Below are positions 17,101 through 62,709 of a stretch of DNA of 64,000 nucleotides, one piece after another; the stretch's first letter is position 1; each line of letters begins with the position of its first letter. A model generated the notes under the pieces. That model searched no databases. It had not been told where the DNA came from and saw nothing but the letters and a program-made list of their open reading frames with translations. Position numbers and translations under genes: made by a program. Source of the DNA: Balanoglossus misakiensis (Eukaryota > Animalia > Hemichordata); assembly GCA_040954595.2 (NCBI GenBank), contig CM082585.2:2882902-2946901 (forward strand). The letters run 5' to 3'.

Positions 17101-20100
17101 TGCTATGGTTTTCCTGTGGTGAAAATATCTGTGGTGACATAGTGTTTTCTTTATATCATTTAATAATACACATCTTTTGGCAACTTTTGTGAACATTTCA
17201 AGAAAATTACAAAATTTTAACACTGTGTAACACTGTTATTTTCAAATTCTACATGTAAGGCTATGGAATTTGAAAACCACGCACTGTATCTGGGTAGTCA
17301 TCTACTTAAGTAATTAAGTTTTAAATAATCCCATACATGCTTTTAATTATGTCTATAATATGAAATAATTTGATCTGCTGTATCTACATACATGTGTATA
17401 TAAGGTTTTGCCAAAATGTTTGCATCCCAAGATTAATGTTTACACTTCAGTAAACCAACATATACATGTAGCAAATCACTTTGCTGGGTAAATTTGCGAT
17501 ATTCGTGAATGAATAAAAGATGTTTTAGCGAATTTTTTTGTTGAAACATCGTCTGTGCTGTGATTTCCTGCATAGATTTTACACTGGTACTGGGACTTTT
17601 AATACTCAACTCCCAACCCGATACTTTGACTACAAGAGCCGACTTCTCTTTGTTTGCTGATTTCTCCTTGTGAGCCAACGACCAATTAGGATTATATGTA
17701 GATTGCCACAAAATCTATCCTCCTCTCTGGTTTCATATGTCATTCAGTAGTCAGGGAGATGTGCTGTTTCGATCACTCGGGTGACATGATCCCAGACACC
17801 TTGCGAGGTTGATCAGTATACACATGATGACTGACAATGAGGGCAACAGTGTATTTTGACGACCAAGGGCTCTGCTAGTCACAACTAAAACAGTCTTGTT
17901 TTCCCGAGAGCATAGCCCGAGGGAAAACAGACTGTTTTGGTGTGACTGGCAGTCCCGAGGTCATCAAAAATACACTGTTGCCCGAATATGTCAGTCATCA
18001 TGTGTTATAACACACCAAACAGTCGCATCGATGACCCATATTAGGAGTTGCTTATTAGCATAAAAATTAACATATCATTAATATGTAGAACGCGATCTGA
18101 CCAATGACGCGCCCGGAAAGCCGCGCCTCTCACCCATTTCCCCGCCCTTTGTTAAGAAAATCACGACTTTTTCTTTTCAAATGTAAATTTTGGGGTCAAA
18201 TACGCTGTTTGGGGATATCCCGTCAATTGAAAATAAGAAAGTACGAGTCAAACTTGCTACCAAGTCAATAAGAAAATTTTTCACCAGTGCTTTTGTGAAA
18301 TATTTAATTTTGATTTTGGCGTCTAAGCTACTTTTCGAGGATTTCGCCTGAAAGATGGCGTTATTAGACAGAGCGTATAGATTGAAGGCGTTCATCGAGA
18401 GCCAAAGTTTCCTAGTGACGGTGATCACCTGACTTGTCTATATCACCGCGCACAGCAACCAAAACAAAAAGCGACCTTTTAAGGACATGCACCCCCAAAA
18501 GACATACATGTACTAGTATACTGTTAGACAGTTACATGTAAACAACGCCGTTGAAATATGATGCGGACGCCTGGGAAGTATACAGGCACTTGAAATGGGT
18601 GCCGCCCACCCGTCTCCTCGCCCCTCGCTAGACAGATGATGGCCGCATATTTCCTAAAACCATGGAGGTACTAAGAGATGCCAAAGGAACGCCCGTTGTC
18701 TTTATTCTAGACGATGTGGTTGCGTTATGGTTGTGCAAAGTTTGATTTTGCCGATACTACTCCCCTCTACTGTTCAGCATGTAACTGCGTGCTGCCCACC
18801 CTCACCGCATGTACGTCGCCTCACAAACAGGCTGACAGTCATGATTGTAGCTATAGCCTGGACAAATGATTGTTTATTTCGTCCTACGTAACATCAAAGG
18901 TTGTCATTTCACCACGATCATAATAAGCTCTACCGTTTTAATTTTGTTGTGAGCCAACTTAAACTTTGAGCGGCTGGGCTGGAAATAATAATCCCCCTTC
19001 ATGTAGTAATGCAAAGTAATGAGTTGCGACTTACAGACTAATAAACACTATGTCGAAACACGTCAGTCACTCTTTATTGCGGAGGAACGTCGTCGACTGA
19101 GGACGAAAATATTGTTTGAACACCAGCGCAGCCAGCCTGTACGGTTTCCAGTTGGTCAGTTCGCCGTTTTACTGCCACTTGCCTGCCCTTATCCGTCAAG
19201 GTCGTCAATTCATACACCAAGTCACGTCATGTTCCCTACCTTTATTCGAAGAGTAACCCTCATGTTTGATTGTCGAAAACGTAGACAAATTCTTATTCCA
19301 TCACGAAAACAATTATTACCAGCGATCGACAGACTGACAGTATGAAGATCAAAAGTCATAGGTCAAAGGGTACGGTTGAGGTCCGTTTTTTTCCGTGACG
19401 AGTTTCAGTGTGATGCAAAATATTCAATTCAGTCGCATAACTAAAATCAATAGATAAATGTAAAAACTGTCTACTGGTACTTGTCTTTTGAATGATGTAT
19501 GGCCCTGAAGAAAGGTCGTGTGTTTTGGTTGCGATGATACCAGTCAGGTGACCACCGTCACTTCATTTCATGCATCGGTCTGTCTAATACCAGGTCGCCA
19601 TCTTTCAGGCGAAATCCTCGAAAAATAGCGTAGACGCCAAAATCAAAATTAAATATAGCTGTGAACAGCAATAAGCGGGTTTCGAGACACTACTAGCCCT
19701 ATTGGTTCGCCTGGAGATAGATTTGTGCATATTTAATTACTGCATTAGTTGTTCTATCACTCCAAATGCCAAGGGTGTATGTGCTGTGGATGCTGAGATG
19801 TGGAAAAGTAGGTCAAAGGTCACGTGAGGTCACGCTTAATATGAGCAGAAAATGTTTACGCTATACTGGTCCATGTCAAACAAAAACCAGACCTGTAGCC
19901 CTACTGGTTTGCCTGGAATTAGGTATGCACATAATTAATGAGTTAGGCAGGTGTCACAGGTGACTCTAAAATTTGGCTTCTTATTTTGGTCCCGTCCACC
20001 CAAACACCTAAGCTGTACCTGCTCTGGATGCCGAGATATGTGAAAGTAGGTCAAAGGTCACCCAAGGACATCCAAAGTTTGGGAAAAAAAATTGTCCCCA

Positions 20101-23100
20101 TACTGGTCCACGTCCGACAAAAACCAGACCTGTAGCCCTATTGGTTTGCCTGGAATTAGGTATGCACATAATTAATGAGTTGAGCAGGTGTCACAGGTGA
20201 GCCTTAAATTTGGCTTCTTATTTTGGTCCCATCCACCCAAACACCTGAGCTGTACCTGCTCTGGATGCTGAGATATGCGAAAGTAGGTCAAAGGTCACCC
20301 AAGGTCACCCAAAATTTGGGAAAAAAATTTGACCCCATACTGGTCCATGTCCGACAAAAACCAGACCTGTAGCCCTATTGGTTTGCCTGGAATTAGGTAT
20401 GCACATAATTAATGAGTTGAGCAGGTGTCACAGGTGAGCCTTAAATTTGGCTTCTTATTTTGGTCCTATGCTGCAGACTATTGCACCGACCAGAATTCTA
20501 CAAAACTATGTGGCCATAGCTTAAGTATAGTGGAATAAGTATAGGTATAGATTTCATAAAAAAATTAATATAAAAAAATCGGTCGATTTTCCATATTATT
20601 TTTTCCAGTTGGAACTGATTGTCGGAAGGTAGGCTAGCTGCACACAAAATTTGAAGCTGATCAGCCCAGCGGATGTTGAGATATTGGGCATAAATCTAAA
20701 ATCCTAGGGGGCCATTGCTTAACCATGGAAAGTATAGGCCAATGGCTGGGTCCAATGGTCATGGAAAATATGAAAAATAATGCTTTAAAAATCATCTCCT
20801 CAAAATCGGCAAGGACTTAGACTTTGAAATTTGGCATATAGGACCCTGGCCATATGGTCCACAAAGTTTCTGAACAGAATTTGGATTCTTCATTTTTTAT
20901 GCAAATTAGACCAATTTAAATGTTTAAATCCAAGATGGCTGCCAGGTCATGTGACCTGTTGCCATAGTGACATGATCAAAAAATTACTTGCTTTGAGTTT
21001 TACCTATGAGCCAAATTTCAAGTCATTGGGTGCAACAGTCTTCGAATAGCGGCTGTTTTTAAAAGTGGGAAGAAGAATAATAATAATAATAAAAAACAAC
21101 ACGATTTCAAGAGGGTTTCGAGACCCCTCTGGTCTCGAAACCCTAAATATTTCACAAAAGCACTGGTGAAAAATTTTCTTATTGACTTGGTAGCAAGTTT
21201 GACTCGTACTTTCTTATTTTCAATTGACGGGATATCCCCAAACAGCGTATTTGACCCCAAAATTTACATTTGAAAAGAAAAAGTCGTGATTTTCTTAACA
21301 AAGGGCGGGGAAATGGGTGAGAGGCGCGGCTTTCCGGGCGCGTCATTGGTCAGATCGCGTTCTACATATTAATGATATGTTAATTTTTATGCTAATAAGC
21401 AACTCCTAATATGGGTCATCGATGCGACTGCCAAACACGACACACACCACATCCAGGCAACAGTACCGGGCAGAAACCGATCGAACTGATGCCCTAGGGA
21501 ACAGTTCGAAATGACTAAGGTCACGATGGAGGGTTCGCTGCATGGTGTGTTATAACATTGTCTACCTCATATACAATATGGCAGTTGTCGACAAACATAC
21601 ATGGGATATTACAGGGTGACGATCATCTTATTCACATGTGCCAAACCAGAGATTATGGTTACAAAAATTGTATACAGTCAATGCCATAAGGCAGTGTGAT
21701 GTCCTAACCACAGACAAGATGGCGGTGACCAGTCTGTGTCGGAGATCGGGAAAAGACAGAAAATTAGGTGAAAAGAAGGGACACAACAATTGAACTTTTG
21801 GCTTTGCTCAGAACTGTTTAAAGGGACAAAGTCTCTCTCTCGCTGCCCTTTTTCTATTATTTATGTTTTATGCAAGACACCGCTTATGTTATTGTACATG
21901 TGGATATATAGTGAATCAACAATCTACCACACACAACTTCTATCCCGTTTGTAGGATATGAGTGTAAAAATCTTGCCAAAATGAATAAATGGTAGAGAGC
22001 CATTATTCATTTTGATGGATTTTTCACTCTTGAGTCTACAAGCCGGCTTGAAGATGTTTGTGGTTGAAAGTTAATTCACTATAAAATAGTATATATCCAC
22101 ATGTAGAATAATATGGACAGTGTCTTGTATCAAACATAATTAATGAAAAAAATGGCAGCGAGAGAGAGACTTTGTCCCTTTAATTAGGAAACATATTCAG
22201 CTGTGAGAACATATGCTGCTTTAAACACTCATCCTTCAGATGTCAAAAAGTTCGGACAGTGGGTAGGGAAACCTTCTTCCACATCTGCCCACTTTGGGCA
22301 GGCGGAAGAAACTTTCTTTTTTGGGGGATAATAATTTCAATCAACTATTGAACTCAGCAACACCCCCGGCATACATGTAGAACACTTGACATACTGAAGA
22401 ATATTTATAACAGGGATGTGGAACTTGAATCTGACCCTAATTCTATCAGACTTTTCAGTGCATCTATAGTTTGATTAAATTTTATAATTTTAACGAAATC
22501 ATATATTTCTATAGGTCAATCTCAAACCCACAAAAGGAAACGATCAATAGATGAAGAAGTTAGGCAGCGGACCAAACGACAAAGAACCGATTCAACAATG
22601 TCTGAGGACTTTGGTGAGGTAAGACCTGTTAATTAAGTTAAAGCCCTAATAGTGCCTTTTTTTGCATTTATTTTAATGATTTTACTTTCAAATTGAGATT
22701 GGTCCATTTAATTGAGCTTACTGGTGGGTATACAGACATTATCGACCTCTGATTATTAAGGCTGTATATTTAAATATGAACAAGTTAAATAATAAAGGGG
22801 TGACACACCTGTTTATTTGGCTGCCCATTGCAAGAGTACACAACTATCTTGGTATGTGCACATGGGTATTGAAATCTCCACAAATGCAAAATAGTATAGT
22901 CTATTGGGTAAAGATAAGAAGATTGGGATACTTTAGTATCATTAAAAATATGCTAAATGTGGCAACTTTTGGGGCTTTATTGTATGAGGATATAGGCCAA
23001 AAAAGATAACAGAGCTTACGTCAGGTAAGACCTCACTCTCTGTCAAGTGTATACAGATAAAAGGTATGTGAATTGAAAAATCCACCGGAAAATATTTTAT

Positions 23101-26100
23101 ATCCAGCTGTGTCATAATGCAGTCAGTCAAGTTCTCATGTGTGAATGCAGAAGCCAAACTCTAAGAGCACTCCGTTGTTTGAGAAGGGGCTGAGTCTGCT
23201 AAACACGTCATGTACTTGTATGTACAGGTCCTAAAGTACAATATGGGATCACAAACTGTGACTCCCTGTTTTCCCGGAATGCAGTCTGAGACTGGTCCTG
23301 GTTTTCATGTAAATGCATGTGCTCAAGTCCACTTTTTATCCACAGACTTCAGTGGATTCTAGGGCTCAGCCGATCACAAAGACTGTTGAACCAGTCAGGG
23401 GAATTACAAGTAGACTTGCACTATAGTAGATTATACGCGTCCTTACAGCTATCACACAATGTAAGACTAAGAACCTATTTTTGCTTGTGCTAAGCCTCTA
23501 TAAAAATATCCAGTCACATGAAGTGAGGCATAAAACGTGGTTTGTTGATATTTTGGTTATGAACGTTTGTGGGCCTTCAATCAATCATTTATCAGATACG
23601 ACCGTCCGCAGTGCCCAAAAGACTTACGCTACATGTTGTTATTTCGTAATCACACCGATCGAACACTGATACCTCGTGTGGATGCATGCACCATGTCATT
23701 TGTCAACGGTTTTGTGAATTGAACACCAATTTCAAGGGAAATGCTCGTAGTTATGTATCCCACAATCAGCGAAAATAGAGCCCAACCGTGAAAAAAAGAT
23801 TCATGTGGAACAAAAACGCATATTTCCTTCCTCTGACTTCTGTAAGAACGGCGATTAACCACGCAGAATTACCCCTCATGTGTGTATTGTAATCACATGG
23901 GTCAGTCTCTGACACAAGGATACCAATGCCCCTTTCTTGACATATAAAAATTCAGATATTTATTTACAACTAACTTGGATGTAATGAATAAATTTTGAGC
24001 AATTAATTTATTAAGTGTGGAGCCTGCAGGCCTTTCTTGGCGGGAGATTGACGCATGTTGTTTACGTTACCATGGCGCCATAGAAGTAGTAACGCTATTT
24101 AGCATATCACGTGCACTAAATAACACCCACTGGTTGGTGTATTCACAAGTTCATAACATATAATATTTAAAGCCTTACCACCCCGCTCAAGAATATTGCC
24201 TATTGTAATAAGGATTGGGTCAGATCGTTGTTATCGTAGGCGAATTCCGGAGCGGAGTGACTAAGATCGGGTGGGCGGGTGGGGAATTACCAAATCTCCC
24301 CCTCCCCTCCCATCCCCTCCCCTCCCCTCCCTTTACCTATGGAGTTTTCTCATCAACCGCTAGCACTGCTTACTCTCGTGGTTGAAGTGTGGGAAGTGTG
24401 CTCTAGGTACCGAACGTACTATATATATGGCCCTAATGAATATTCATTAGCTCATTAGCATATGCGGATTAATTATCGCGGTGTGATGCGGTTTTAAATA
24501 ATATAATATTTAAAGCCTTACCACCCCGCTCAAGAATATTGCCTATTGTAATAAGGATTGGGTCAGATCGTTGTTATCTACGGCAAAACTCGCTTCTCTT
24601 CATTATCTATGCAATTACCATAAGAACCCTACTCATGTTCCCATACCTTAAATACCCCATATCCATCAGCTCACTCAATTATATTTCCCAAACCTATTGA
24701 CACTGAAATATAACCCATATACATTCTATAGGTTCTGTTATTTGGATGTGATCATATGTTTTGATCCATCATGTCTTTATTTTCACAACTTACAAATACA
24801 TGATTAATAGTCACCATGGCAATTACAGCAGAAAAGCAATCTCTTCACATGCTAGTACTACTAATAATATGATAGACACTAATATTTACATTATGATTAC
24901 ACAGGGATAACAGCACGCTGTATGTGCTTAAATATTCCATATCCATTATTATTTACTTATCTATATGTACACATCAGAAGGCTTGAGAAAAACCCGTCAA
25001 TTTATTTGCCTGTTCATACTCTTGTGTCAAGACCGTGTTCATATCAACTGTTTTTCTAAGTTTCTCAGCCGGCCCCTGGGCTGCTGATACTTGTGACAAT
25101 TTTGTATAATGATGTGCCATATCTTTTGACTTCCATCCAATATGACGTAACAAGTCGTCTACTTGTGCCCCCGCTAATGATAACGAGATGGCACAAGCAC
25201 TTCTACAGCCATGGGGTGTTTCCCCTTGATCTAAATTCAGCTCCTGCAAATACGTTTTAAGGCGACCATAGACTGCCTGTGACGACAGAGGGCGTTGGTC
25301 TACCTCACCACTTGGTGTCGTTGGGCGGAACATGTGTCCCCTTCTTAAATTTATCCCAATCCTCTCTGCTAGAGTGATGTATTGCTCGATGGCGTATACT
25401 GGACAGATCCCTACATCTATACATCGCTTGATTGCAAACATGTTTGATGTAGCACCTCTTAATGTTTTCCCGTATGTATGGTTGAATATAAAACCTGAAT
25501 TATCTGGGAAACGGAGAATTTCCTGTGTTTTGACATTACCCAGATCTCCCGCTCTATCTCCGGAGAACATTAGAACTTTGAAGAAGGTTATATCACGAGC
25601 CAGTATATAAATCTGACCAATTGTCGTGGCTCTGGCTAATTTATTAAGAATGTGCCCAAATATCAACTTCATCTTCTGCAAAAACAAGGGTTTCGCTTGT
25701 TTTGGCATAACGTGTGCCTTGGCTTGCTCTTCTGACATTTTTTTAATATATCTTTCTACCATAATTGATTTGGTCGGGTTATCTCGAGGCAGTTGTTGAA
25801 AAAATGCACTCATTTTTGATACCATATTTTTTAATGTGCCAGATGTCAGGCGTTTTGGACATTGACAAGGCATGTGGCCTTCCCTCCCATAATAATCACA
25901 TATGTCCTGATGTACTTGCGTCTTTGCGTCTTTATCCTTGTATATAAGAAATTTCACGATATGCTCTGGTTTTACTCCCGCCAGACCCACCTGCCCGGGA
26001 ACTGCGCTCATGAAGGATTCAAGTTGCTGTATAATCCTGTCCTTTTGTATCTCATATGGAGACCTGTGTCCCAGCACCTCGTGCATACGTTGGTCTATCG

Positions 26101-29100
26101 CGAGTAGATTTGGTGTATTGACAATCTTGGTATGATTTCGTGGAGGCTTAATTGGCGCTAGCAATGTTGAACACATCTGACACTGTGTCTGTTGCTCATC
26201 GTTTCTTACTCCACACATCCAGCACAAAATCTGTGGATAGGAGATAATGCATAAATAATGACCACGAACTTACGTATATTCATTTGTTTACTTTATTTAT
26301 GTTTGAACATACTATGATAGAGAGAATTATGTGTAAAAACATCTTCTCATGATATATCTACGTGTATATTATACTCTATCGCCTAGAGACACAGCATACA
26401 AGTCACACTTGAGACTACGTGGTGCATAACCGTACTTTGTTGGTATAAGGATCACATCGTCTTCTCCGTGTTCTCCTATCTGCTGAATGTCCACTGCCTT
26501 TTGGCGTATGAGTGGCCAGAACGGTGGAGTGAATCTGTGTCTGGGTACGATCACTGTAGCCTTATAGCCTCGCTGAATAACGTGTCGGAGGACAGCATGT
26601 ACCAGTACAAAGGGTGGATATATATACAGCTTGTCATCCCTCGAGAAGCTATGGTGAAATATATTCACACCTTCACAGCCAGGCTGTTTGAATGGGGCCA
26701 CGAACCTCGGCAATTTTGTATTGGAACTGTTTGCCATGGCATCTGTCTGGTGTGGCCCGAACAATTTCTGAACCTTTTCCCACGCTTTGGGGGTTAGTGC
26801 AGCGTCCATCGGCGATATCTCTCTTGACGGCGCGTCTGCTTTATTGTCTGATGACTTCACGTATCTAAGCATCAGCCTGATGTTATTATCCACGCACCAA
26901 TGAAACAACTTGCGGACTACTTCATTGAGGGCGACTGATTTGGCTCCCGGGGTACCCTTTGCCCATACTTGTATCAATACCATGGAGTCCACATTTGCGT
27001 CAACACGCTTGTCCCGTGTTACTTCTTGAAACGCCATCAGAGCTCTCAGCAATGCCTCGGCCTCCTTTAGCACTATTGGTTTTCCCGCCCATTCGTTCTC
27101 CCACATATCGCTGACTATGATATCAGAATCCACCTCATGACTTTGGTGTAATATCGCACCCCATTTATATGAGCTAGCATCGGTGGAGATGGAAATCTCA
27201 ACGTGTTCTTCTATAGGCCATTTAAATTTCTGCGCGCTTTCAACTATTCTAACCCATTCCATTAGCTCCCCTCTGAGGGCGCTCTTTAAAGCTATCACGG
27301 ATCTCGCTGTAGAATTGGCTTTTGCCACTACGGTCGCCATTTGTCTGATATACAACCTAGCACATGGTATGGCTAAGGATAGCGAAATGCATTTGCCCAT
27401 GATCTTCTGAATTAGGGATAGGTGGGTCATTTTTGCTTGTAAGACCCCATTAACTAGCTCCAAGAATGAGCATTTTTTCTTCTCTGGTATGGAGAAAGCC
27501 ATATCTACGGTGTCTACAGTCAGACCCAACATCACCAAGCGTTGGACTGGTTTCAACACGCTTTTGTCTAGTGATATAAAGTATCCAGCATCGATGCACG
27601 TTTTTAACAAAATGTAGGCTGCGGCCTCTGCCAATTGTGCCTTACCCCAATTCTGTTGATTTTTCCCTCTGGGCAGGCGCAGTGCGCCCCCATGCCGGTC
27701 ATCTATGTATTGTATACATGGTACACCTAAGGATCTGACATAACTAGTAATACAGTAACCTACTGTCTGATATATATATGCAGATAATTTCCATCCAAAT
27801 GGCAGTGTATTGCAAATATACCAGGGCTCGAAATTCGCGGTAGCCCCGCGTCCACAGACTACCAATGTTTGCGATCGGGCTACCAATTTGACACCAGCGG
27901 TAGCCCGATTGGGCTACCATGCGTGCGACGTATCTTGGACTTGTTACAGTTTATAATGATACAACCAGCAGTGTTTTCTCCAGGACGCGCGATTCCCCCT
28001 CTTTTACACTTGAATCATGGCCCCTTTATGAGCAGCCCACCCGGCCAGTACATGTGCGTCAAGCCTCCGTAGCATGCACCGTCAGTCAAAACACTGGGAA
28101 AACGGCCGATATTACTGCGTGCTGGCCTATACATTTTAACTTCCCACCCCCCAAAACTATGTTGTAGATGACTTTCACATTCAATTACGTGTAATTTAGC
28201 TCCAGGGCTATAGTGTGCAATTGTTGGAACAGCCTATCTGGACACCGTCTAAATTTAGAGCACATGCTCTGCACTCAAGTGATGGCTGAACGTAACAATT
28301 TTATGCAAATTAAAAGAACTGCGTTCATCTCAGTTTTCCATGACCTTGTTTGGAAGGAAAGTCATTCAATATGTACAGAGACTGTCCATTTGAGTAGTGT
28401 GCTTAGCCACAGATGGGAAGTGTTGGCAGAAATCTGAAGGAATATATACTACTTCAATTTATTTCACTATAATAATGGTTTCAAAATCTATTATTTTGGC
28501 AGCTAAAAAAACTGAAACTTTTAAAAAATCAAACAAGAATTTTTTTACCAGGTATAGTATTAAAGACAGACACTATTGTTTTTGCAGTTGCATTTATTTT
28601 ATTCATTTCACTCTCCTTGCCAGGGGAGCAGTTAGTCACTCTCCTACCACTTGTGTAATTAATTTCAGGAGATTATTTTCAGCTCTCCAGGCTTTTTTTT
28701 AAATTACATGCCCTGAAAGTTATGCAAGTTGGTGTCTTCCTCTGCAAGACCTACTAATTTAAAGAAGAAAAAACTGTAACTGTTAATTTGTTGTCAAGTT
28801 CACATGTAAAATGTTGTAATTTACTAATACTGTTTTTAATATGGAATGAAGGCAGTTAGTAAGTTAACGTTCAAAATTGTCATTCGTGACATTTACTTCG
28901 ACCAAATCCCCCCTTAATTTTGGACTAAGGGGGACATTCCCCCTTCTCTCAACATCCTGGAGAAAACACTGGGTTCAACCGGCCGCGGACTCGTGTGCAT
29001 TTTGACACGTGTCAATCAACAATATAATTGTTCACCATAGCAGTATGTAGGTATATTAAAAATTTACCAACGTTCTCAAACAGATATAGACCTACTACCG

Positions 29101-32100
29101 TACATGTAGCAGTATACAATGTACATTGATTTATCATTTGTATTATGTGGACTACCAGCTATTGCTCTTGGGCTACCAACTTTAGAAAATGGTAGCCCAC
29201 TGAGGCTACCAAGAAAAAAAACGAATTTCGAGCCCTGTATACCAATACCCACATACACTCTATCGGGTTCTGCTATTCGGATGTGATCATACCCACTCTT
29301 ATCGTCACACTTAAACTGGTAATCATTACCATCGAGGTATTTTGTGACCTCGAGTAATTTATCAAGCGAAAAGGGGATGTCTGAAATCCACAGATTGAGA
29401 AAGCGCATGTCTATGCACAGTCGGGGTTTTGTGGGTTCAATCGTTATGGGCATAACAATGCGAGGGGGTGGATCACATCCAACTTTTCCAAATCTAGATA
29501 TAGCCCCAGACTGTAATCTGTCCCCCAAGGTCTTGGCAATAAACTCGCCAAATTGGCTACATTGGGGGTTGTTGTAAAATGCTTGACAAGGGGGTGCGAC
29601 ATGGTCATAATCTCGGGTCTTAAATTGTCCTTTAAAATGTTGCATGAATCGTGAAATGTACACTCCATTAATTATCCAGTCCATGATCACATCACGGTCA
29701 AGTAAACACCGGATGATATCTTGCCAGAATTCTACATGGTTATGAAGTTCCCCAGCCTGGAATTCATTGGGGTCTCGGTAAAATAAATCACTTGGCGAAG
29801 CATATACTTTTCCCATAGCAACATCTTTGACACTTGGCAGCTCGACATATTCCACCTGCCTGGGAGCGCCCTCACATGTAACCCAAGAGTGATATTGTCG
29901 TACACAGGACTCCCGATTCACCTCGTACAGGTATTCCCACTCGGGGGTGTGAAACTGCAAGAGAACACAAAGGGAATGTAACACTAGTAGGGTTACATGA
30001 GGGCGCCCCCAGACAGGACCTGCATATGCAGGGTGCTGAAACAGCAAAGGGCTTCTTGAGGTAGCCCCCCTGCCCAGGGGATAATGAAAAGGCCAGACAC
30101 AATATAGATTATATTACGTTTTATTACATTTCAAGCATCAAGCCAAATTGTATACATCATTCTTTCTTTTTGTCACAACTTCTAGCGAAGTGACCTGGTA
30201 ATCCACAAACATAACACTTTCCATCTCTATTTCCACGGTACTGATCACCCCCTCTCCATCTTGGGCGATTATAGGGCGCAGGACGGCTCTTTGCATGCTG
30301 CATAAATTTGTTAACCTTGGATGCGATTTCTGCTTCCTCTTTGTTGCCTAGCAACAGTACTATCAGTCGCCCAGCCTCATCTCCAAAGTCATTGGATTCA
30401 AACTGTGACAGGACTGCCCTGTATCGATGCAACTTTGAGTGGCCAATAGACGTGGCGCGGTCGACCAATGCCCTCAACGCACTCAGCAACTGGCTGCGAG
30501 ATGTGACAGAGGGGTTATGTGCCAAATCCATCACTTTTTGCAATGCCTCGTCTACCGATGCCGTTCCACTGGACTGCACCATTTGTTCCATCTGTCTCTG
30601 TAACTCAGTAGGCTGTCGCTTCACCTAAAATATAGCAAGAACATTCTCATAATCATCTAACCAAAGACACTCTAGAACCAGTATGCAATATGCGCTGCCT
30701 TCACATCTATTTATACTACTAGGTATTACCCATAGCACACAAAGCCAGGTTATCGTAATAATCAAGCTGCACGCCCCACCCCGGGCCCCACCATATAATC
30801 GAGCTTCCACGTTTCTCGGTATAATCGGGCCTACACGCCCCACGACATAATCGGGCCTACACGCCCCACGACATAATCGGGCCTACACGCCCCTCTATAT
30901 AATCGGACCTACACGCCCCTCGATATAATCGGACCTACACGCCCCACGATATAATCGGGCCTACACGCCCCACGATATAATCGGGCCTACACGCCAACGA
31001 TATAATCGGGCCTACACGCCCACGCTATAATCGGGCCTACATGCCCCTCGATATAATCAATATAGTCAATACGATGAAGAATACACTATATAGCGACTGA
31101 CAATGTACACGTACATATATACATACATGGTTATGGGTAGAGACCCCGGGAAAGGCATGCAGAATGTGGGGAAGGCCATAGATGTTCATGCTACGTCAGT
31201 CTACATCATGCCGTGGGTGACAAGCGCGAACAATGGCCTAGGTGAAATGTAACAATAAAAACACACGCCCGACATCACGGGGATGAAATGAAGCAATGAA
31301 AGCACACCTTGCGTCACAACGGGAATGAATGGAGGCAATGAAGACATGCACGCAAAAACGCATGTAAAACACGAGATGAAATAAGCAATGTACGTGAAAC
31401 CACTAACAGATGAACGTAGTGATAGCACAACCGGGTGAAATGAACAATGTACGGCTGAATGGACATGAAAACACAAAGCGGTGAAATGAACAATGAAATG
31501 ATAGCACGCCCAAATGAAATGAGCAATGCACAGGAAACGGGTGCAACAGGTGTCAGAAAGTTACGCAATGAATGAATCGAGAAGGCAACAGACACTCGGC
31601 GTCTCAGTGCACATGCGGAAAACTATGAAATGAATAAAAAATGACGAACGCACAGCCGGATACACATATAAAACAAGAATTCACAACACGACGACAGAGA
31701 AAAAACAAGAAACACAAAACTATTTACCTCCGTTTCTCCGGCTACTGCAGCATTTTCTACATTCCCTTGCACACGGTCTAGGCCGTCGCGGTTTCCTCTT
31801 CTAGGTCTTGCACCTGTACCTGTGGTAGTGGGCGTTTGCTGGGTTGCTGTCTGCGATTCACCATGGGCTTCAATGTTACCTTGGGAAGTAGAAGGCCGAT
31901 GCGCTGCAACAAACGCTGCCGCAGCTACATTTGGCGTCACGGTGGTTGCAACCTGAGTTATTGTGGCTTCTGGCTGGGCGGGCTGATCGGTACCATTGGA
32001 TGCCATGCTCTCCTCTGCCGCTGCACCTGCTCTCGTGGTTGAAGTGTGGGAAGTGTGCTCTAGGTACCGAACGTACTATATATATGGTCCTAATGAATAT

Positions 32101-35100
32101 TCATTAGCTCATTAGCATATGCGGATTAATTATCGCGGTGTGATGCGGTTTTAAATAATTTTGGGGTCATTAGTCGCAGACTGAAAGTCATTGAGATATT
32201 ACGGTTTTCTTGTCATTTGCTTGAGGTTTGTTAGTCAGAGCCTATCGTCTGGGAATCTGCAGGTTTCGCTGCTTGCTGAATGTGTGCATATATTGCATCT
32301 AAACCATTTTTAGCAACCATGATCTGTCAAATTTTGGTCAATTCCATAGGTATCGCCCTGCAATTTGCAGCGGGCTGGTGATTTCAAGTGTTGTTGTCTT
32401 TTTCCGTGTTAATTTTTGTAAAATTTTCTTGTGGGTTTTTGGATTTGACACAGCGAGTAAGATAATTAAATGTCAGCTTTGTTAAAAGCTCAGCTCGCTG
32501 GATATTTTACGTGTTGGACACTTGTAATTTTTGTTTAACACCCGTAATTTTCTGGACACTCGAGAACGTTGTCAGCCATTTTGAATACTTAATGAGTGAT
32601 AATAGACACGCCCACTTTGCGCTCAGTCCGAAGACTGTCTTAAATAGAGACTTTCCCTGCATAATATACCAGAGCCTTCTTTTCCCCGAGTGGAAATTGA
32701 TGGCTCTGGTTCACGAGAATGAGACAATGCTGTTAACCAAATACCAGTGACACAAATAAAATGTTTGGCTATTTACTTTTGCCTATCAATGTATGAGGGT
32801 GTCTTGGAAGTATTGTCACTGTTAAACCATCATGTGGTTATTTTCTGCCTCCAGGTTGCTGCAGATAATGGTATCTACTGGTCAGTCAATCATGAGAGAT
32901 TCCATCAACACATCCGTGATCAGATTGTCATTGAAGCTGTAGCTGCAAGAGTAGATAAAGTGAGTCATCACTTGACATGTTCATCCCCATTTAGCTGTGG
33001 TTTAATCTGTCTGAGTAGTGAAAACAATATGAATTTTTCAACATTCAGAGATTATGGGGGTGGTGGGCATTTCAATCTCAGTGGGTTGTACCAGTCAGAT
33101 GTGATATGGTGACTACATGGCGAAAGTTATGATTTTATAAAAAAAATCTGTTTGGTACAAGAAATTCTTTTAGCATGTAACAAATTAAAATCATTTGATT
33201 ACCGCAAAAGCATTGATGTCAACTCGGATTAACATTTAATTACCGTGTTTTAATGTGTTATGTTATGAAAGTTCAAAAGTGTAAAAAAACTTGCTGTTGA
33301 CATCTGAAATAATGAACAATGTTGCAGTTTGGCTATAGATGTTGAGTAATGTTTGCCTCTGATTTCATGCATCAGTCAGATTATTGGAGTAAATCAATCA
33401 AATCGAATAAGAATAAGGTAACTACGAAAGTGAGAGGCCAAATGCTGCTTGATTCTTTGTTTTTGCTTTAATAAAAACAAACGGAAAATTGTAGTAACTA
33501 AAATAAGTGTAAAAGTAAGGTTCACTAAACGAATTGATCTTTAACCCCCCTCCCCATCACCTTAATGAATGAATGAAGGACATTTCATAATTATCATATA
33601 TGCAACGCCTGTATTTGGCACTTTCTATTGTTCTCGCATTGAAGATATACGGTATTTCATCGAGTGAAATATAACGTCCGTGTCTCGAAGTATTTTTGAG
33701 AACGGGCTGAAATCATCACACAGCATGACTCAGTGATCGGCGCGACAGTTCGCTGTGCGCGCGAACGACATACGGGGCATAGAACTCTAGTGGAGAGGGG
33801 TGTTGTAAAATTCGGTTATTAGAAGCTGTAATAAAGTTTTCAAAGCTGGCGGTTTTGCCATGTTGAATGTATCATTTTTACTTCTGCAGAATTCTCAATG
33901 AGAAATAATTGTTAACATGATATTTTGAAACAGAACGTACTGGACAATTTTATTTAGAATGGGGATGTGCCCATCGTAATGAAAGCTGCCAACCCCCTTA
34001 GAATAATACTACGGCCTACACATTGATCACCTGATCGCATCGCCCTGTCTCACTTGTCTATAGGCTGCTGCCATGATCCCAGGGGCCCGGTTCAAATTTC
34101 ATGTATGATAAAGGGGTTAATACGACACGTAATCTACCAAAATTCGTGTAATAACCCCTAAGTATCGTATCCGTGACAACGCCACAAGTGAGAAAATACA
34201 GCTAGAAGCAAGCCAAATATCATTTAAAAGCTGAATGTTTGTGTCTGTTCGACCTGCAAGCTGGAACCTTCAAAAGTGTATGAGGGGGGTGGTTAAACAA
34301 ACTTTGGTGATAAATCATGGCTGTTGACGGATTGATTGCACAAGCTTTACGAAGTACCTGTTGATTGACAAAAAACATTGCTAATTTCTAACAGGAGCGC
34401 AGATTATTTTGGAACTGCCATGAAACAGTTTTTTCGTGCGATTGTTTATTTTCAAAGGACAGATAGGCAGCCAACTGAAGGAAAATGCTAGAATGCTTAA
34501 ATGAATTAATTTCCCTTTCTTAAAGTGAACCGACACCTTCCTTGTAGAGAGATTCTAATAAAATCTTTGTGAAAAACATGAGTGATTTGCGTCGTTTTTA
34601 TTCACTTTCACTTATCGCGCAGCAGCGTAGCGTCGATCTCGATATGCAGTGTGACGTCACAAACTAGTCACCAGTAGCAGACGCCACCGTGCGCACGCTA
34701 ACGTACACAGACAGTTGACATGGCTGGCTGCCTCGCAAGTGGGAGCAAAAACAGAGTTGGCAAAAACACGGCGAAAGGTTTTATAAAAGTTCCCGACCCT
34801 TCGGTGGACAGTCAAAATGCAAATCGAGCTGAAAAATGGGTGTCAAACATTGGCATATTATTTCGGTGCTTATTGCTGAGACAGATGATACTTTTGCTTT
34901 GGAAATGTTCGTGTTCAACTAGGCCCTATATCGTGAAGCATATTGCAAAAAAAAAAAAAAACTACACAGCAAAAATTGTCGAAACAGCCGGGGCTCCTGA
35001 TTTCCTTTGATCACCATATGACGAAACCGAATTTTTGGCACTGTAAATCAAAACTCTGATCGGAAGAAAGTAGTGTGGCGGAAATAGGCCTACTTGTGAA

Positions 35101-38100
35101 CACTGTTTTTGTCGCGTACCCAAGCTGTGAATGCATCGCAAAACCATTTCTAGAGACAAAAACGACCACGCGATATGGAGTTTTCAAACGAAGATATCGT
35201 CGGATTTTTGTACGAACCCGAATACAGCAGCGATGAGATGGTAGGCGACTCAAGTGAAACTGATTCCAATAGTACAGAGGCAAGTGTAGACAGCAAAGAC
35301 GATCGAGAAGAGTGATCGGCTTCGTCTTCCATCACGCTCATGGTGTAGCTGCGCTGCGGTAAATGCGAAGTTATTTCTACTGTCAAGGAATGCCGGTGCT
35401 GCCATGAAATAGATTTCTTGACAAGGCCGTTAGATAAAGACTTGAACGACATATCACGAAGCCATGCGATAATTTTTGACATTTAGTCACCCATGTCATA
35501 ATAGGGACCCTCGTGATTTCCCAAAAGAATAGAAAGTAAACCTATTGACACTCTCGCGAAAATGTCTACCACACGCGTCTACCATCCTTTACGTTGATCA
35601 ACAGCTGTGAAAAGATGCGGCTTTGTTGATCAAAGGGAGGCAGAAACTCCGATTGTCATGTTTCGAGTACATCTGTGGTGCTTCCAGATGGTAGAGGTGG
35701 TCGTTTTTGTCTTTGGAAATGGTTTTGCGATGCATTCACAGCTTGGGTACGCGACAAACACAGTGTTCACTAGTAGGCCTATTTCCGCCACACTACTTTC
35801 TTCCGATCAGAGTTTTGATTTACAGTGCCAAAAATTCGGTTTCGTCATATGGTGATCAAAGGTAATCAGGAGCCCCGGCTGTTTCGACAATTTTTGCTGT
35901 GTAGTTTTTTTTTTGCGATATGCTTCACGATATAGGGCCTAGTTGAACACGAACATTTCCGAAGCAAAAGTATCATCTGTCTCAGCAATAAGCACCGAAA
36001 TAATATGCCAATGTTTGACACCCATTTTTCAGCTCGATTTGCATTTTGACTGTCCACCGAAGGGTCGGGAACTTTTATAAAACCTTTCGCCGTGTTTTTG
36101 CCAACTCTGTTTTTGCTCCCACTTGCGAGGCAGCCACCCATGTCAACTGTCTGTGTACGTTAGCGTGCGCACGGTGGCGTCTGCTACTGGTGACTAGTTT
36201 GTGACGTCACACTGCATATCGAGATCGACGCTACGCTGCTGCGCGATAAGTGAAAGTGAATAAAAACGACGCAAATCACTCATGTTTTTCACAAAGATTT
36301 TATTAGAATCTCTCTACAAGGAAGGTGTCGGTTCACTTTAACAAAAATATCCCCTACGAGTGTGAGAAATACGATCCCAGATCCTTGGGGGTGTGAGATT
36401 CTATTTTTCCCTTTTTACCAGAAATATCTCAGACAAAGACACTGATACATGTACTTGTTAACTGAATTCAATACTATATTTCCCAACAATGACATAGGCA
36501 ATTACATTTACGGTTGGTATTTGCACGACATATTTTGAGTATTTCAACATGCTCTCAGAATAAAATGAAATGCACGACAAATCACTGAAATCCAACAATT
36601 TAGTATTGTCCTTTATTGGGACAAAGTCTCTCTCTGGCTGTCCATTTTTCCACTTATTATGTTTGATACAAGACACCGTTTGTGATATTCTACATGTGGA
36701 TATATAGTGAATCAACGGTGGACCACACACACCTTCCATCCCACTTGTCGACAAATTTTGCTGTATACATTGTATTATGAGAGCCATTGATTTCTCTTCT
36801 TACACAATAGATTGCAGGGGAAGTTGTACGGACAATGCTACGCATCAGTGAAGTGACTACTGACCCAAAGGCCTTGCTCACAACACCAATGTCAAGCCAT
36901 GAAATCTATGCAGCTTTGCCCAAAGAACTCAAGTTTCCAAGGTCTACATTCGATCAGTATCTGAAGTTGCTTGCTGATGATCAGGTACTTGATTACTCTC
37001 GGTATAAATGTTGTATAAAAGCCTCTAATAGCTGCCTTTTTTCAATATTTTAATGATTTTATGAAACTAAAATTGTTCAAGTCTGCTCAAACACAGTGAA
37101 TCTGTGTTAATTTGAGTAGAACAAGAAACCACAGTTTACCAACTAGAGAAAAATTATGAAAAGCAGCCAAAAGCTATTGATTTTTTAATGGTAAGATGTT
37201 TCTATTTGATAGTGTGCAGTTTGTGTTTTATCATCTTGAATTCTGAAGTTGCAGTTTTCTGCCTATGATTTTAATTTTAATTTTCAGATGGAGATTGTCA
37301 ACAAATGTGGAGAGAGTGGTGGTGGAATGTACGCCATAAGTATCCTTTGTGATATCAGAAATAAAATGGTGGTGAAAAGTTGCTGTCTTTTTTACGCCTG
37401 GTGAAGTTTATAGCCCCATGAGCTGTTACTTTGTACAATATTTTTCATGATTTTACTTTCAACCTTAGATCATTTTACAGCTCCATCTATAGCTGTGACT
37501 GTCTGCTGTGTTTTCAGTTTGATGCTATATGTTTGATTTGTGTAGCTACTGCTAAACTGCAATTTCTTGTTCAAATTCCTGAAACATTATGAAATGCCCA
37601 ATATTCAGCCTATTAAGGTGGTATTGCATGAAAAATTGTCTTCCTACTTCCACAGTAAAACATAAAATGAATTGTGTAGTTCCTGACACGTACCCAGATA
37701 TTTATAAGGCAATCAAGGTATTATGCACTGCTCATGTGGAGTCTGTTGTACAAGAAAGATTTGGATCAAAATGTTTCAGGATCTTCAGATTGTTATTACT
37801 CAAAAAGCATTTGGAACAAAAACAGGTGAGAATAGCATTTTTGAAAAAAAATGAAATGGTGAGTATTTTGATACATGTAATATTATGAAGTACAGTCACT
37901 GTGAAAATTCCATTTCGGCTATTGCCCAAGCACTCACTTTAGTATGTTACAAAATTGTGGCTGCCTTAAATAGGTTTTCACTTTGTGCTAGGGGTTCAAA
38001 TCACATTGCATTCTGGTCGAAAAGTCGACAACCCACTGTAGTAAGAGATAGAAGAAATGATATGTTTACTGTATTTCATGACTTCCTTTGGTCAAACATG

Positions 38101-44839: not shown

Positions 44840-45392
44840 TTCATTTTGAAAACTATTTTAATGTTTTTGTCATGTCTTAGTGTATGCGGGATAATTGTTT
44901 GATGAATTTATGGAGATACAGGTGATCCTTAGCTCTAATTACCATTCTCACTTCCTTTAACCCTTTCACGGCAATGATTTGCTCCAAATCCATTGTTTTC
45001 TATGCATCTTATTAGGATCTTTCCATTGGATCATTGTGTTATTTTGGGGTGTTTTACTTAAGGTGATACCCACCTCGAAATAAAAACCTCGTCTGATCAT
45101 GTTGAAATTAATACTAATGATACTATGACATTTGATCTATGGAATAAAAATGGGGGGTCAACCATCTAGATTTTGGGAAAAAGTGCCCTCTATCTAGCGG
45201 TCTTTAAGCTTTTGCCAGTTTTTGTAGATCTTTGAATATTGCACGAAGGGCGCTGTTTACTGAAGTACCGTAGACGTCGCGTATGTCTGGTGTCTCCAAC
45301 TTTTCCCAAAAATTTCCAGTTTGTTGGCAATTGGCGGCTGAAAAGTTGCATATACGTTTACTTGAAGTAGAGAAGAAATAGTACAAGTGGTC

Positions 45393-46400
45393 ATGGGTGT
45401 TGCACTGACAGTGTGGCGGCAAAGAATTGGATGTTTCTCTCAGCCTCTGCAAGCAATGCTCGGCGGCCACGTTGGCACTGACAAGGTACCTGTGAATTCC
45501 TTTGTCTGCATGGCATTGTTCTTGACGCTTTTGACATGTGGCGATGTTGAACGCAACCCCGGCCCCAAAGCTCCAGCCACGGACAAGACAGAATCAACAA
45601 CGGACAGGAAAACACGACAAAGCAAATTAACAGAAGCAAAATTTGCCTCCAGCGGTGAAGATATTTTGCCAACTCCAACCCAAATCCAGAATACAGACAA
45701 GAATGCTATTGTCGACGAACTGAAAGCGTTTATTGACGCTCAGATGTCAAAACTGCACGTATCTCTCGAAGACAAGTTTTCCCAACTTGAAATAAAGGCG
45801 GAAAAAATAGCAGTGGAGCTGAAGGAAGGCTTAAAAGGTGTGGAACAGGAAATAGCTGCAGCGAACCAACGAATAGGTGAACTGGAATCTGAAAATACCG
45901 AACTGAGAAACAGACTGGACCGAATGGAATCACAACAGGATTATACAAATGGCCAACTTCGGAGAAATAATTTAATTATACATGGTCTGCAGCAAGATGA
46001 GAGTGAAAATTGGGAAGATACTGAAACGAAGGTGCGAGACTTCATTGACAAAGAGCTGGCACTGGAAAGTGAGAACATTGAAATAGAGCGGGCACATAGA
46101 CTGACCAAAGCCAAAACCCGTCCACAGCCAGTGGTGGCGAAATTTAACAGATGTAAAGGCAGGGATAAAGTTTTCCGAGAAAGCAAAAATCTCGCTCGTG
46201 ATGGACCGCTCCGTGTTTCTGAAGATCTCCCTCCTCTGATTCGAGAAAAGCGAAGAAAACTGGGTCCTTTCCTGTCAGCTGCCAGAAGAGACAACAAAAA
46301 GGCACATTTGCGCTACGATAAGTTAGTTATCGAAGGTGAGGTTTTTATACTTGATGTCACTAAGAAAGATCCTCATCTGATAAAAGTTGGTGATAGATAG
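45393..46400 (+). CDS. LINE ORF1: 2A-like motif, coiled coil, L1-type RNA-binding domain
   Basis: LLTCGDVERNPGP; heptad region; RRNNLIIHGL...IERAHRL...RPQPVVAKF...VSEDL. Confidence 0.88.
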   Translation: MGVALTVWRQRIGCFSQPLQAMLGGHVGTDKVPVNSFVCMALFLTLLTCGDVERNPGPKAPATDKTESTTDRKTRQSKLTEAKFASSGEDILPTPTQIQNTDKNAIVDELKAFIDAQMSKLHVSLEDKFSQLEIKAEKIAVELKEGLKGVEQEIAAANQRIGELESENTELRNRLDRMESQQDYTNGQLRRNNLIIHGLQQDESENWEDTETKVRDFIDKELALESENIEIERAHRLTKAKTRPQPVVAKFNRCKGRDKVFRESKNLARDGPLRVSEDLPPLIREKRRKLGPFLSAARRDNKKAHLRYDKLVIEGEVFILDVTKKDPHLIKVGDR

Positions 46401-46890
46401 GGTGTTGGCCGAAGCCCACGTGCACTACAACCACGGATGGAAATGAATCTTGGAACTGAGAACCTGCCAAATCCACCACTACAGAAATATGCGAAGGTTC
46501 GTGAGACTCTGGGTGCATCTGAAAACTATGTGTCGTGCATCCTGTGGAACATTAATGGTATACAAAACAAATGGAACAATTTTGATTTACTGAAGTATTT
46601 AATGAAGTTTGATTTGATTTTCTTGACAGAAACTTGGACATCAAATGATGCATCATTTTTGCTCAGAGGGTATGACAATTGCCACATTAGTCGTAGTAAA
46701 TTGAAACATTTTGGGAGATTTTCTGGGGGAATCAGCATTTATTATCGTTCAAATCTGGGTAAGGCCAACAGGGTCAAAATTTTCGAAAGTGACTTTACCA
46801 AGGATATTGTATGGGTAAAGTTCAGCACCGATTTACTTAAAGTCTGTTTTGGAGTTGTATATTTCTCGCCACAAGGTTCAAGTTCTTATG

Positions 46891-48337
46891 CCCTTACGAA
46901 AAAATAAGGCTTCTGGCGAACAGTTGTGGTAAACTTACCGCAACTTTGCGGCACATATACCGCAACTGTTTGCGGCGCACGCGCGGCTAATGCATATTTT
47001 CGCATGCAAATGAGCTGTTGCGGCGCACAGTTGCGGTAAACATACCACAACTTTGTGGCACATATACGGCACGTATGCCAAAACAGGGGTTTGCGGCGTA
47101 CATGCCGCAAATTATGCCCTTTGCAACTTTGCGGCGCATATACCGCAACTGTTTGCGGCGCACGCGCGGCTAATGCATATTTTCGCATGCAAATGAGCTG
47201 TTGCGGCGAACAGTTGCGGTAAACATACCGCAACTTTGTGGGTTTGCGGAGTATATGCCGCAAATTATGACCTCTTGTTAATACATGTAATTAATCCCTA
47301 CTGTGGCCCCTTCTTAGCTACCAGCCACCCGTGAAAAGAATTGCCAATCTATCCATTCTGTTCTGAAGTTTGCATACTTCACAGTACAATGTACATGTAT
47401 CTTGGTTCAGCAAATCTTAATTCTCATGTGAATTTGGTGTGTCATATTCATACATGTACTTCCCATAAGGAGAGTTATTCCAAGTATATTCAACAGGCTT
47501 AGACAAAACATCCTTTCTTTGTTAAATTGTGACCCTCATTGTTTATTTCAACAGCAGGCATTATTTTATAGTTATCTCAAGTGATTCAACTACCACAGAA
47601 ACCAACAAAATTTAGAAAACTCACTCAGCTGTATACATGTCATTGCAATGTTCTTGTCTCAAGTGTCCTCTTCCTGGTATAAATTGTCTTGGATCAACAC
47701 CAGAGTTTTTCTTTTGCAGACACTTTTCCATTTAGTCTGACTTTTAGTACAAGATTATGACATCATCCTCAGGAAATTGTTCAAACTACTGACCTCTGGT
47801 AATGCACAAATATCGCTACCACAGTATTCAAGTGAAGCAGCTTCCAGCTGTATGGATTGGTGACATCAAATTCATGGTTTTTGATGGGCACAGTGACTAC
47901 AGTGTAACCTTACACAATCAAAATGTCCGCCTAAATGAAACCAGCCTCATTCTCGTTTCTGCACATGTCACCAAAAAGTAATTATAACCAGCTGCATATT
48001 CAAACTCTGTTTACTAGAACGTTCTGGCATATATACCGCAACCGTGCCGCAACAGACTCCACTGATCACCAGATAATATCAAACTCCCTGTTTACTTTAC
48101 TTTTGCGGCATATGCGCCGCAAAAGGCTCCACTGATCACCAGTAGTACAAGACACTCTGTGTTTACTTAAATGTTGCGGCATACGTGCCGCAAAAGTCTT
48201 GACTGATCGCCAGAAGTGTGCCAGTACTGGCGATCATCGGCGATTAGTCGCCACAAAGTTGCGGTCAGAAATTTGCGTGCCGCACATGTGCCGCAACTTC
48301 GCCGCATGTTTGCCGCAAGAAAACAACTTCGTAAGGG
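46891..48337. mobile_element. CACTA/EnSpm-type (CCC termini) non-autonomous element
   Basis: TIR CCCTTACGAA; 2-bp TSD TG; many subterminal ttgcggc/gccgcaa repeats; removal restores the ORF2 frame (SSYADERN). Confidence 0.85.
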
Positions 48338-62707: not shown

Positions 62708-62709
62708 TA

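Follow-up and report, generated by a model that had tools for sequence, protein, structure and literature searches.

The element at 24974..32006 (minus strand) of Balanoglossus misakiensis is an ALOG-type tyrosine-recombinase (YR) retrotransposon with split direct repeats. It carries Gag, Pol and YR in three separate ORFs, and the conserved N-terminus of each begins at a splice-acceptor-like site. This raises the question of how one element expresses three such proteins. Here, we analysed the 64-kb stretch of DNA around it (the window) and related loci from other animals.

Identity and State of the Element

The YR exon (24974..26230, minus strand) follows a phase-0 CAG acceptor and codes for 418 aa with a zinc ribbon (CxxC...CxxC), an ALOG domain and a tyrosine recombinase. 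Both of its Pfam matches were above the cut-off (ALOG_dom, 1.6e-17; Phage_integrase, 6.9e-11), and the catalytic-type residues R226, K255, H340, H363 and Y375 were invariant in 30 sequences. The gag exon (30157..30624, minus strand) lies behind a phase-0 TAG acceptor and codes for 155 aa with a CCHC zinc knuckle; it matched Pfam zf-CCHC above the cut-off and was 53-58% identical to Ptychodera models. The Pol exon (26369..29954, minus strand, phase-0 CAG acceptor) includes RT, RNase H and a methyltransferase-like C-terminus, and it is interrupted. Its Pfam RVT_1 and RNase H matches were both below the curated cut-off; it was 50-53% identical to acorn-worm Pol, and 122 Pol homologs were found at E ≤ 1e-40. 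Pfam gave no methyltransferase match in the C-terminus of Pol. This region holds D-A-M-A and Y-P-P-F motifs, which may be of methyltransferase type. The element has features that mark ALOG-containing YR retroposons, namely a zinc ribbon, an ALOG domain and a catalytic YR, with a zinc-knuckle Gag upstream of RT/RNase H.

The repeats on the minus strand are A1 (32030..32159, 130 nt), B1 (24501..24587), A2 (24373..24502, 130 nt, abutting B1) and a second B repeat (24158..24244). A1 and A2 share 99% identity, and the two B repeats share 95% across 87 nt. The A1-B1-A2-B2 order is the one given for PAT-like elements, as far as the account in PMC4157794 goes. A search for inverted repeats of at least 25 nt in the region 20000-38000 found no terminal pair of the strict DIRS1-like kind. 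Compared with Ngaro-like elements, the split direct repeats fit, whereas the methylase-like C-terminus of Pol argues against such an assignment. There was no second copy of the element within the 64-kb window, and a scan of viral contigs found no relative of it. A bacterial promoter scan, a type of scan unsuited to this eukaryotic element, gave nothing.

Judged from its sequence, A1 is likely the promoter of the element. It contains a TATA-like TATATATA (32084-32077, minus strand). All three ATGs of A1 (32118, 32112 and 32104) are upstream of this motif, and the first ATG downstream of it is at 32006.

The interruption of Pol, which the preliminary description does not mention, is a 1,416-bp insertion inside RT (27822..29237). 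It is bounded by 15-bp terminal inverted repeats and flanked by a 5-bp duplication. It has no long ORF of its own in the ORF list and is likely a non-autonomous DNA transposon. Because Pol is interrupted, this retrotransposon copy is itself non-autonomous.

Leader Exon and Predicted Splice Sites

The preliminary description had claimed that a leader of 93 codons ends in a phase-0 donor and that each ORF begins at an in-frame YAG. Both claims were borne out. From the ATG at 32006, the leader coding exon (31728..32006, minus strand) runs for exactly 93 codons to GAG|GTAAAT, with the donor at 31728/31727 in phase 0. The acceptors tatttttag|GTG (30624), ctcttgcag|TTT (29954) and atccacag|ATT (26230) are each in frame with their ORF. 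It had also claimed that no ATG stands at the conserved N-termini, and indeed the first in-frame Met is residue 12 in gag, 47 in Pol and 5 in YR. The YR acceptor sits two codons ahead of the first zinc-ribbon Cys, and the first Met of YR falls past this Cys. Frameshift or read-through expression was rejected, since in-frame stops occur in the spacers and no ORF overlaps another.

The T content is 12% before the leader donor and 55% after it. The predicted intron 1 (30625..31727, minus strand, 1,103 nt) is T-rich and carries, at about 30759-31058, a tandem array of 26-bp units. The gag acceptor is weak, with 12 pyrimidines in 20 positions, and four other YAGs in the same intron have at least 14.

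The leader is of low complexity, contains an FVAAH motif and resembles the N-termini of Ptychodera gag models. Of 2,052 six-frame stretches, it was the top-ranked one when compared with four of five Ptychodera N-termini, with weak shuffle support for two of the five (132 and 276 of 2,000 shuffles). A bias-corrected profile search for leaders did not recover the leader of this copy.

Conservation in Related Elements

The relatives compared have YR proteins that are 29-76% identical. In 28 of 31 related loci, the AG of the YR acceptor ends exactly 42 nt ahead of the first Cys, and in the remaining three it lies 40 or 46 nt upstream. A blind best-YAG rule placed the YR acceptor in phase 0 at 29 of 32 loci and in 10 of 12 families. 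In addition, the acceptor is an in-frame TAG in 21 of these 32 loci, and in 22 of the 32 no Met separates the Cys from the closest upstream stop. Phase-0 acceptors were also found for Pol (13/15 loci, 11/13 families), for gag (8/9 loci, 6/7 families) and for YR without the ribbon (6/8). Control windows gave phase 0 in 25 of 59 cases. Since this exceeds one third, the binomial p-values for phase-0 acceptors are optimistic. The best-YAG matches of L021 Pol, L059 gag and L075 gag are probably not true acceptors.

Among 84 sequences, an ATG-led low-complexity ORF that ends at a donor was found in phase 0 seven times and never in phase 1 or 2. The GAG|GT phase-0 leader donor of this copy is also present in L006/L008, L017, L021 and L054. 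A Met occurs soon after the Pol acceptor in four families (residue 2, 3, 11 or 13) and soon after the YR acceptor in 10 of 32 loci; in such relatives, use of the ATG is possible. The idea that donor, acceptors and phase are conserved held for position and phase.

Junctions and Gene Models

In contig L001, which may derive from RNA or from DNA, the leader (..PLE) is fused directly to gag with a precise junction. L082, 89% identical to L001 at the junction, has a T-rich intron that ends in AG at that very base, and L017 has the donor ..PLE|GTAAAA and the homologous intron. Among the 83 fetched loci, we found no leader-Pol or leader-YR junction.

Public gene models of Ptychodera join the leader to gag, or join the leader, the start of Pol and YR. 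In the latter, the YR part starts at the residue that matches the YR acceptor of this copy. Models of Lineus and Mytilus join an identical leader to gag or Pol, and those of oyster join an identical leader to gag or YR. The Ptychodera and Lineus models get to YR via a piece of Pol and not directly. The RefSeq loci concerned include LOC105324906, LOC128182570, XP_070570167 and XP_069134615. Gene models are predictions, and some of them (P0068, P0343) are plainly stitched.

Poly(A) Signals and Alternative Explanations

The preliminary description had placed an AATAAA behind each ORF, and the three hexamers do lie there on the sense (minus) strand, at 30120..30125 after gag, at 26292..26297 between Pol and the YR acceptor, and at 24776..24781 after YR. 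In shuffled bases, an AATAAA arises with a chance of 0.02 in the gag-Pol spacer, 0.26 in the Pol-YR spacer and 0.46 between YR and B1; therefore, only the first is notable. It had further proposed that the three ORFs are alternative terminal exons and that each has a poly(A) site of its own. We regard this reading as possible but rather doubtful. It overlaps with our preferred explanation and differs from it in the 3' ends only. In its favour, all three ORFs of this copy are followed by the hexamer, the gag one is improbable by chance, and an AATAAA behind gag is also found in L006/L008, L009, L024, L082 and L083. However, the Pol and YR hexamers here are expected by chance, and 9 of 14 related families have neither AATAAA nor ATTAAA in the Pol-YR spacer, which is only 18-33 nt long in several of these nine. 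The shared leader and its phase-0 splicing to three acceptors are well supported by the conservation in relatives, the L001 junction and the gene models, and three separately polyadenylated terminal exons lack support as a general rule. A choice among alternative 3' splice sites, with poly(A) sites as an option, is the better fit. Some mRNAs of this copy, most plausibly that of gag, may end at its AATAAA sites, but the family does not require separate 3' ends.

The remaining alternatives concern the route to Pol and YR. One or both could be reached in two steps, through a second donor located within gag or the start of Pol rather than from the leader, and this we consider unlikely. In a mollusc/ribbon-worm subfamily, the models diverge at K|V within gag, and at this point L023, L031 and L003 carry strong donors in phase 0; from these models and donors, the mollusc-type subfamily splices from within gag. 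(The ESM Atlas gave no usable match for the mollusc-type leader.) Moreover, Ptychodera P0059 and Lineus P0029 get to YR via the Pol N-terminus. Here, however, the homologous gag site reads AAA|GTGATG and is weak, and the first 330 nt of the gag exon hold no donor with a score of at least 7 of 9. P0059 also fuses the leader directly to Pol, and L034, a genomic fusion of Pol start and YR without RT, could account for models of the P0059 and P0029 type. It is less probable still, and in our opinion improbable, that gag alone is spliced and that Pol and YR start from internal ATGs, be it through reinitiation, internal entry or an internal promoter. The gag junction is the only one observed in a contig, and all three ORFs have an internal Met, close to the acceptor in some relatives. 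Nevertheless, a start at the first Met here would cut off the W-E motif that is conserved in Pol, along with the first ribbon Cys of YR; the position of the Met is not common to families, and many relatives keep a conserved 14-codon peptide, free of Met, after the in-frame TAG. Finally, spliced-leader trans-splicing resolves polycistronic RNA in other invertebrates, and tandem non-overlapping ORFs with an acceptor ahead of each would suit it. We think this very improbable here: the element itself supplies a phase-matched donor, the sole observed junction joins its own coding leader, and a trans-leader without coding sequence would have no need of a fixed phase.

Proposed Expression Strategy

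With the splice signals seen in this copy, their position and phase in relatives and one precise leader-gag junction in the contig of a relative, we consider it likely that the family produces Gag, Pol and YR from one leader exon, which bears the ATG and is cis-spliced to three alternative acceptors in phase 0. The leader sequence common to the three proteins might serve their co-assembly. Transcription would start from A1, the Pol and YR acceptors would be used from the shared leader donor, and competition among acceptors would set the protein ratios. The unspliced RNA would be the template that is packaged and copied, and therefore the introns would persist.

The packaged RNA might be selected via a structured element in the gag-Pol spacer, which would be spliced out of the Pol and YR mRNAs. 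A multi-stem structure is predicted at 30006..30080 (minus strand; fold z -1.7), and it is possibly a packaging signal. Eight relatives have a covarying three-way junction at the same place, which is homologous to the fold of this copy by position only. Rfam gave nothing credible on the element (one chance match, E 2.6) or on 11 related loci. A hammerhead or HDV-like ribozyme was dropped as an explanation of this structure, because the core motifs of such ribozymes are not conserved.

More tentatively, with a chance that we put a little short of even, these elements form a clade of animal YR retrotransposons in which spliceosomal introns have been kept in hosts as diverse as corals, molluscs, ribbon worms and acorn worms, with one promoter for all proteins, alternative 3' splice-site choice, a shared coding leader and packaging only of RNA that still bears a structured signal, which guards the introns. 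The signal in this clade-wide reading would sit inside the Pol and recombinase introns.

Comparison with Known Systems

If a retroelement keeps its introns while it passes through an RNA stage, unspliced RNA would have to be packaged selectively, as happens in retroviruses. For annotation, ORF-finder views shorten these proteins or overlook their common N-terminus. Moreover, many of the multi-isoform genes that are annotated as "uncharacterized" in bivalves, ribbon worms and acorn worms seem to be such elements. Term searches of the literature on the DIRS order found no such splicing strategy, and the DIRS-order papers that they returned do not describe how downstream ORFs are expressed.

Iyer and Aravind 2012 (PMC3537659) described ALOG-containing DIRS1-type retroposons and, in the account used here, treated the metazoan copies as disrupted. 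These share with our element the zinc-knuckle Gag, RT/RNase H, the inactive-methylase region, the YR with zinc ribbon and ALOG domain, the direct repeats and marine invertebrate hosts. The main text of that paper is silent on splicing and introns, whereas the present family has conserved introns and a shared leader. The echinoderm PAT-like elements (PMC4157794) are alike in the A1-B1-A2-B2 repeats, the Gag zinc finger and the methyltransferase region. They differ in that their description, as far as it bears on this point, includes no introns, and the likeness rests on features rather than on phylogenetic placement.

In plant Ty1/Copia elements, which make a short gag RNA, alternative splicing coupled to early termination likewise balances structural against catalytic proteins. 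According to PMC5580714, one splice there yields gag only and Pol comes from unspliced RNA, whereas here all three proteins would need a splice. In foamy viruses, the spliced Pol mRNA uses a 5' splice site in common with the mRNA of another gene; according to PMC3705302, Pol carries a start codon of its own and lacks Gag sequence, and Gag is made from unspliced RNA. In contrast, the shared exon here is coding, and Gag in the present subfamily would also be spliced. The mollusc-type subfamily, in which Gag reads through the donor, is nearer to the foamy viral plan as outlined there.

Structure of the window element

The YR retrotransposon lies at 24158-32159 on the minus strand and carries the split direct repeats A1, B1-A2 and B2. 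Pfam matches in the element included the zinc knuckle, ALOG and phage-integrase domains, and those to RT and RNase H were weak. The closest relatives were acorn-worm proteins (Ptychodera YR, 51-53%; Glandiceps Pol, 53%). The preliminary description proposed one leader exon alternatively spliced to gag, Pol and YR exons, and all of its coordinates proved correct when checked directly in the sequence. The leader has 93 codons, from the ATG at 32006 to the donor GAG|GTAAAT; YAG acceptors are at 30624 (gag), 29954 (Pol) and 26230 (YR), each in the frame of its ORF; and AATAAA is found 3′ of each of the three ORFs. In addition, we found a feature absent from that description, a non-coding insertion of 1,416 bp (27822-29237) inside RT, which ends in 15-bp terminal inverted repeats and is flanked by a 5-bp duplication. 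Thus, RT is broken and the window copy is non-autonomous.

There is also a 45-nt copy (24713-24756, 87% identical) of RT coding sequence 29247-29291 located 3′ of YR, with no counterpart listed among 20 related loci checked. Elsewhere in the window, there are a large near-perfect inverted repeat at 34516-36345, whose two arms (about 660 nt each, 98-99%) enclose a 527-nt core, and, judged by eye from translation, long ORFs resembling a LINE-type element at 45366-52214 (+) and a gag-like gene at 62627-63493 (-).

Predicted splice acceptors and poly(A) sites in related elements

The comparison set included 80 metagenome loci, kept out of 87 found, and 3 loci from genome collections. The YR pairwise identity of 14 representatives was 29-76% (median 39%). 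Loci L081-L083 and proteins P0005 and P0188 are animal-type elements inside bacterial metagenome-assembled genomes, probably through host contamination.

Of 33 related loci showing the zinc-ribbon pattern, two had a different Cys pattern and were dropped. An AG ended exactly 42 nt 5′ of the first zinc-ribbon Cys in 28 of the remaining 31, and at 40 or 46 nt in the other three. Under a blind rule taking the YAG richest in pyrimidines (≤150 nt), the YR acceptor was in phase 0 at 29 of 32 loci, window included (10 of 12 families). The acceptor is TAG in 21 loci, placing an in-frame stop immediately 5′ of a conserved 14-residue peptide, and Met is absent between the nearest stop and the first Cys in 22/32 loci. 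For control windows within the coding region, the outcome was phase 0 in 25/59, with a pyrimidine content of 0.57-0.69 versus 0.82 at YR acceptors. Since controls are often in phase 0 and are less pyrimidine-rich, the fixed position of the acceptor outweighs the phase statistic as evidence. Among ribbon-less YR loci, nine chosen by eye (a biased sample) with one skipped, the rule gave phase 0 in 6/8, and both failing loci had a phase-0 CAG nearby.

For Pol, 22 loci were anchored. Seven of these, short or with a broken frame, were set aside; the rest gave phase 0 in 13/15 loci and 11/13 families, with TAG in six. For gag, 18 were anchored and 9 skipped, giving phase 0 in 8/9 loci and 6/7 families. 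A few of these Pol and gag matches are probably not true acceptor sites. Some families have a Met within 13 residues of the Pol acceptor, and others have none for 33-172 residues. No Met position 3′ of the Pol acceptor is common to families.

The Pol-YR spacer includes AATAAA or ATTAAA in 5/14 related families and neither in 9/14, leaving out L020, L059 and L081, whose spacer limits are not definable. Some spacers without the hexamer are only 18-33 nt. Among the window hexamers, the gag one alone exceeds chance. Thus, separate poly(A) terminal exons would be optional at best.

Predicted leader exon and a leader-gag junction

In 84 sequences, an ATG-led low-complexity ORF ended at a donor motif seven times in phase 0 (window, L006, L008, L017, L021, L031 and L054) and never in phases 1 or 2; two leader-like ORFs with a donor occurred on the opposite strand. 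The donor of L021 (GAG|GTAAAT) is identical to that of the window. The window leader is similar to the N-termini of gag models from Ptychodera, with FVxxH in common. Among 2,052 six-frame stretches, it was the top-ranked one against four of five N-termini. Composition-keeping shuffles reached its score in 0, 2, 42, 132 and 276 of 2,000 cases for the five N-termini, and a bias-corrected profile search did not recover it. Thus, homology of the leader to these N-termini is supported but not strong.

In contig L001, a 66-codon leader ending in PLE is fused directly to gag. L082, 89% identical across the gag start, has a T-rich stretch with a pyrimidine tract and an AG ending at the junction base, and the related L017 has PLE followed by GTAAAA. 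Judged from these contigs, the difference is the precise removal of a phase-0 intron between leader and gag. L017 also bears a 285-residue uninterrupted eukaryote-type ORF, which suggests transcript assemblies, a source type that we infer. No leader-Pol or leader-YR junction was seen in the related loci fetched. In L001, L006, L008, L017 and L054, the element 3′ end continues straight into a leader exon, which may reflect copies lying in tandem, circle junctions or a collapse of the A repeats.

Public gene models

Predicted Ptychodera models join the leader to gag, or to the Pol start and YR, and the YR part of the latter begins at the residue matching the window YR acceptor. A Lineus query returned 119 proteins, 94 of which match none of the gag, Pol and YR references (mostly leader alone); the rest run on into gag, Pol, YR or mixtures. 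In Lineus and Mytilus, identical leaders diverge at a single residue and continue as either gag or Pol; in oyster, the two continuations are gag and YR. Of ten proteins checked, nine come from NCBI gene models and the tenth from a Logan contig. Several of these predictions bear isoform labels, which generally require transcript alignments, and some models are stitched. Alternatively, the models joining the Pol start to YR could reflect genomic RT-less derivatives and not splicing. A genomic example exists in L034 (218-800), where the Pol N-terminus is in one frame with YR without RT, in the same layout as the Ptychodera and Lineus models. Overall, we consider shared-leader splicing quite likely.

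In the mollusc/ribbon-worm subfamily, the branch point lies inside gag, with strong phase-0 donors in three genomic loci (L023:2619, L031:1622 and L003 near 165); proteins of this subfamily include P0227/P0224, P0356/P0358 and P0265/P0011. The leader there is structured and about 100 residues long, is interrupted in L023 by additional introns, and had no usable match in ESM Atlas. Gag would be made by read-through of the donor, and Pol and YR by splicing. The homologous site in the window is weak; thus, the proposed splice plan has two variants.

Eight relatives (L008, L019, L021, L024, L043, L048, L056 and L082) have in common a three-way junction, located in the spacer between gag and Pol. 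Both partners changed in 8 of 20 pairs, and 0/500 shuffles reached the covariation score, a result inflated because the loci were chosen by motif and are mutually related. A multi-stem fold (z -1.7) lies at the equivalent place in the window (30006-30080), and Rfam gave no match to the structure. Since Pol and YR mRNAs would splice this sequence out, the structure is hypothesized as a candidate packaging signal. Selective packaging and a leader tag allowing co-assembly are both candidate ideas.

Comparison with known elements

We did not find splicing-based expression of DIRS-order elements in the accessible literature; subscription reviews and Repbase, which were beyond reach, may mention introns of this kind. 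In the available portions, "splicing" in PMC7192593 refers to a reporter intron, and "splic" does not occur in PMC3266345 or PMC9210276. The comparison also drew on portions of PMC9940879, PMC3537659, PMC4157794, PMC12477816, PMC8226300, PMC5633606, PMC3705302 and PMC5580714. The expression strategy was not found in print, and the element itself is of a known kind.
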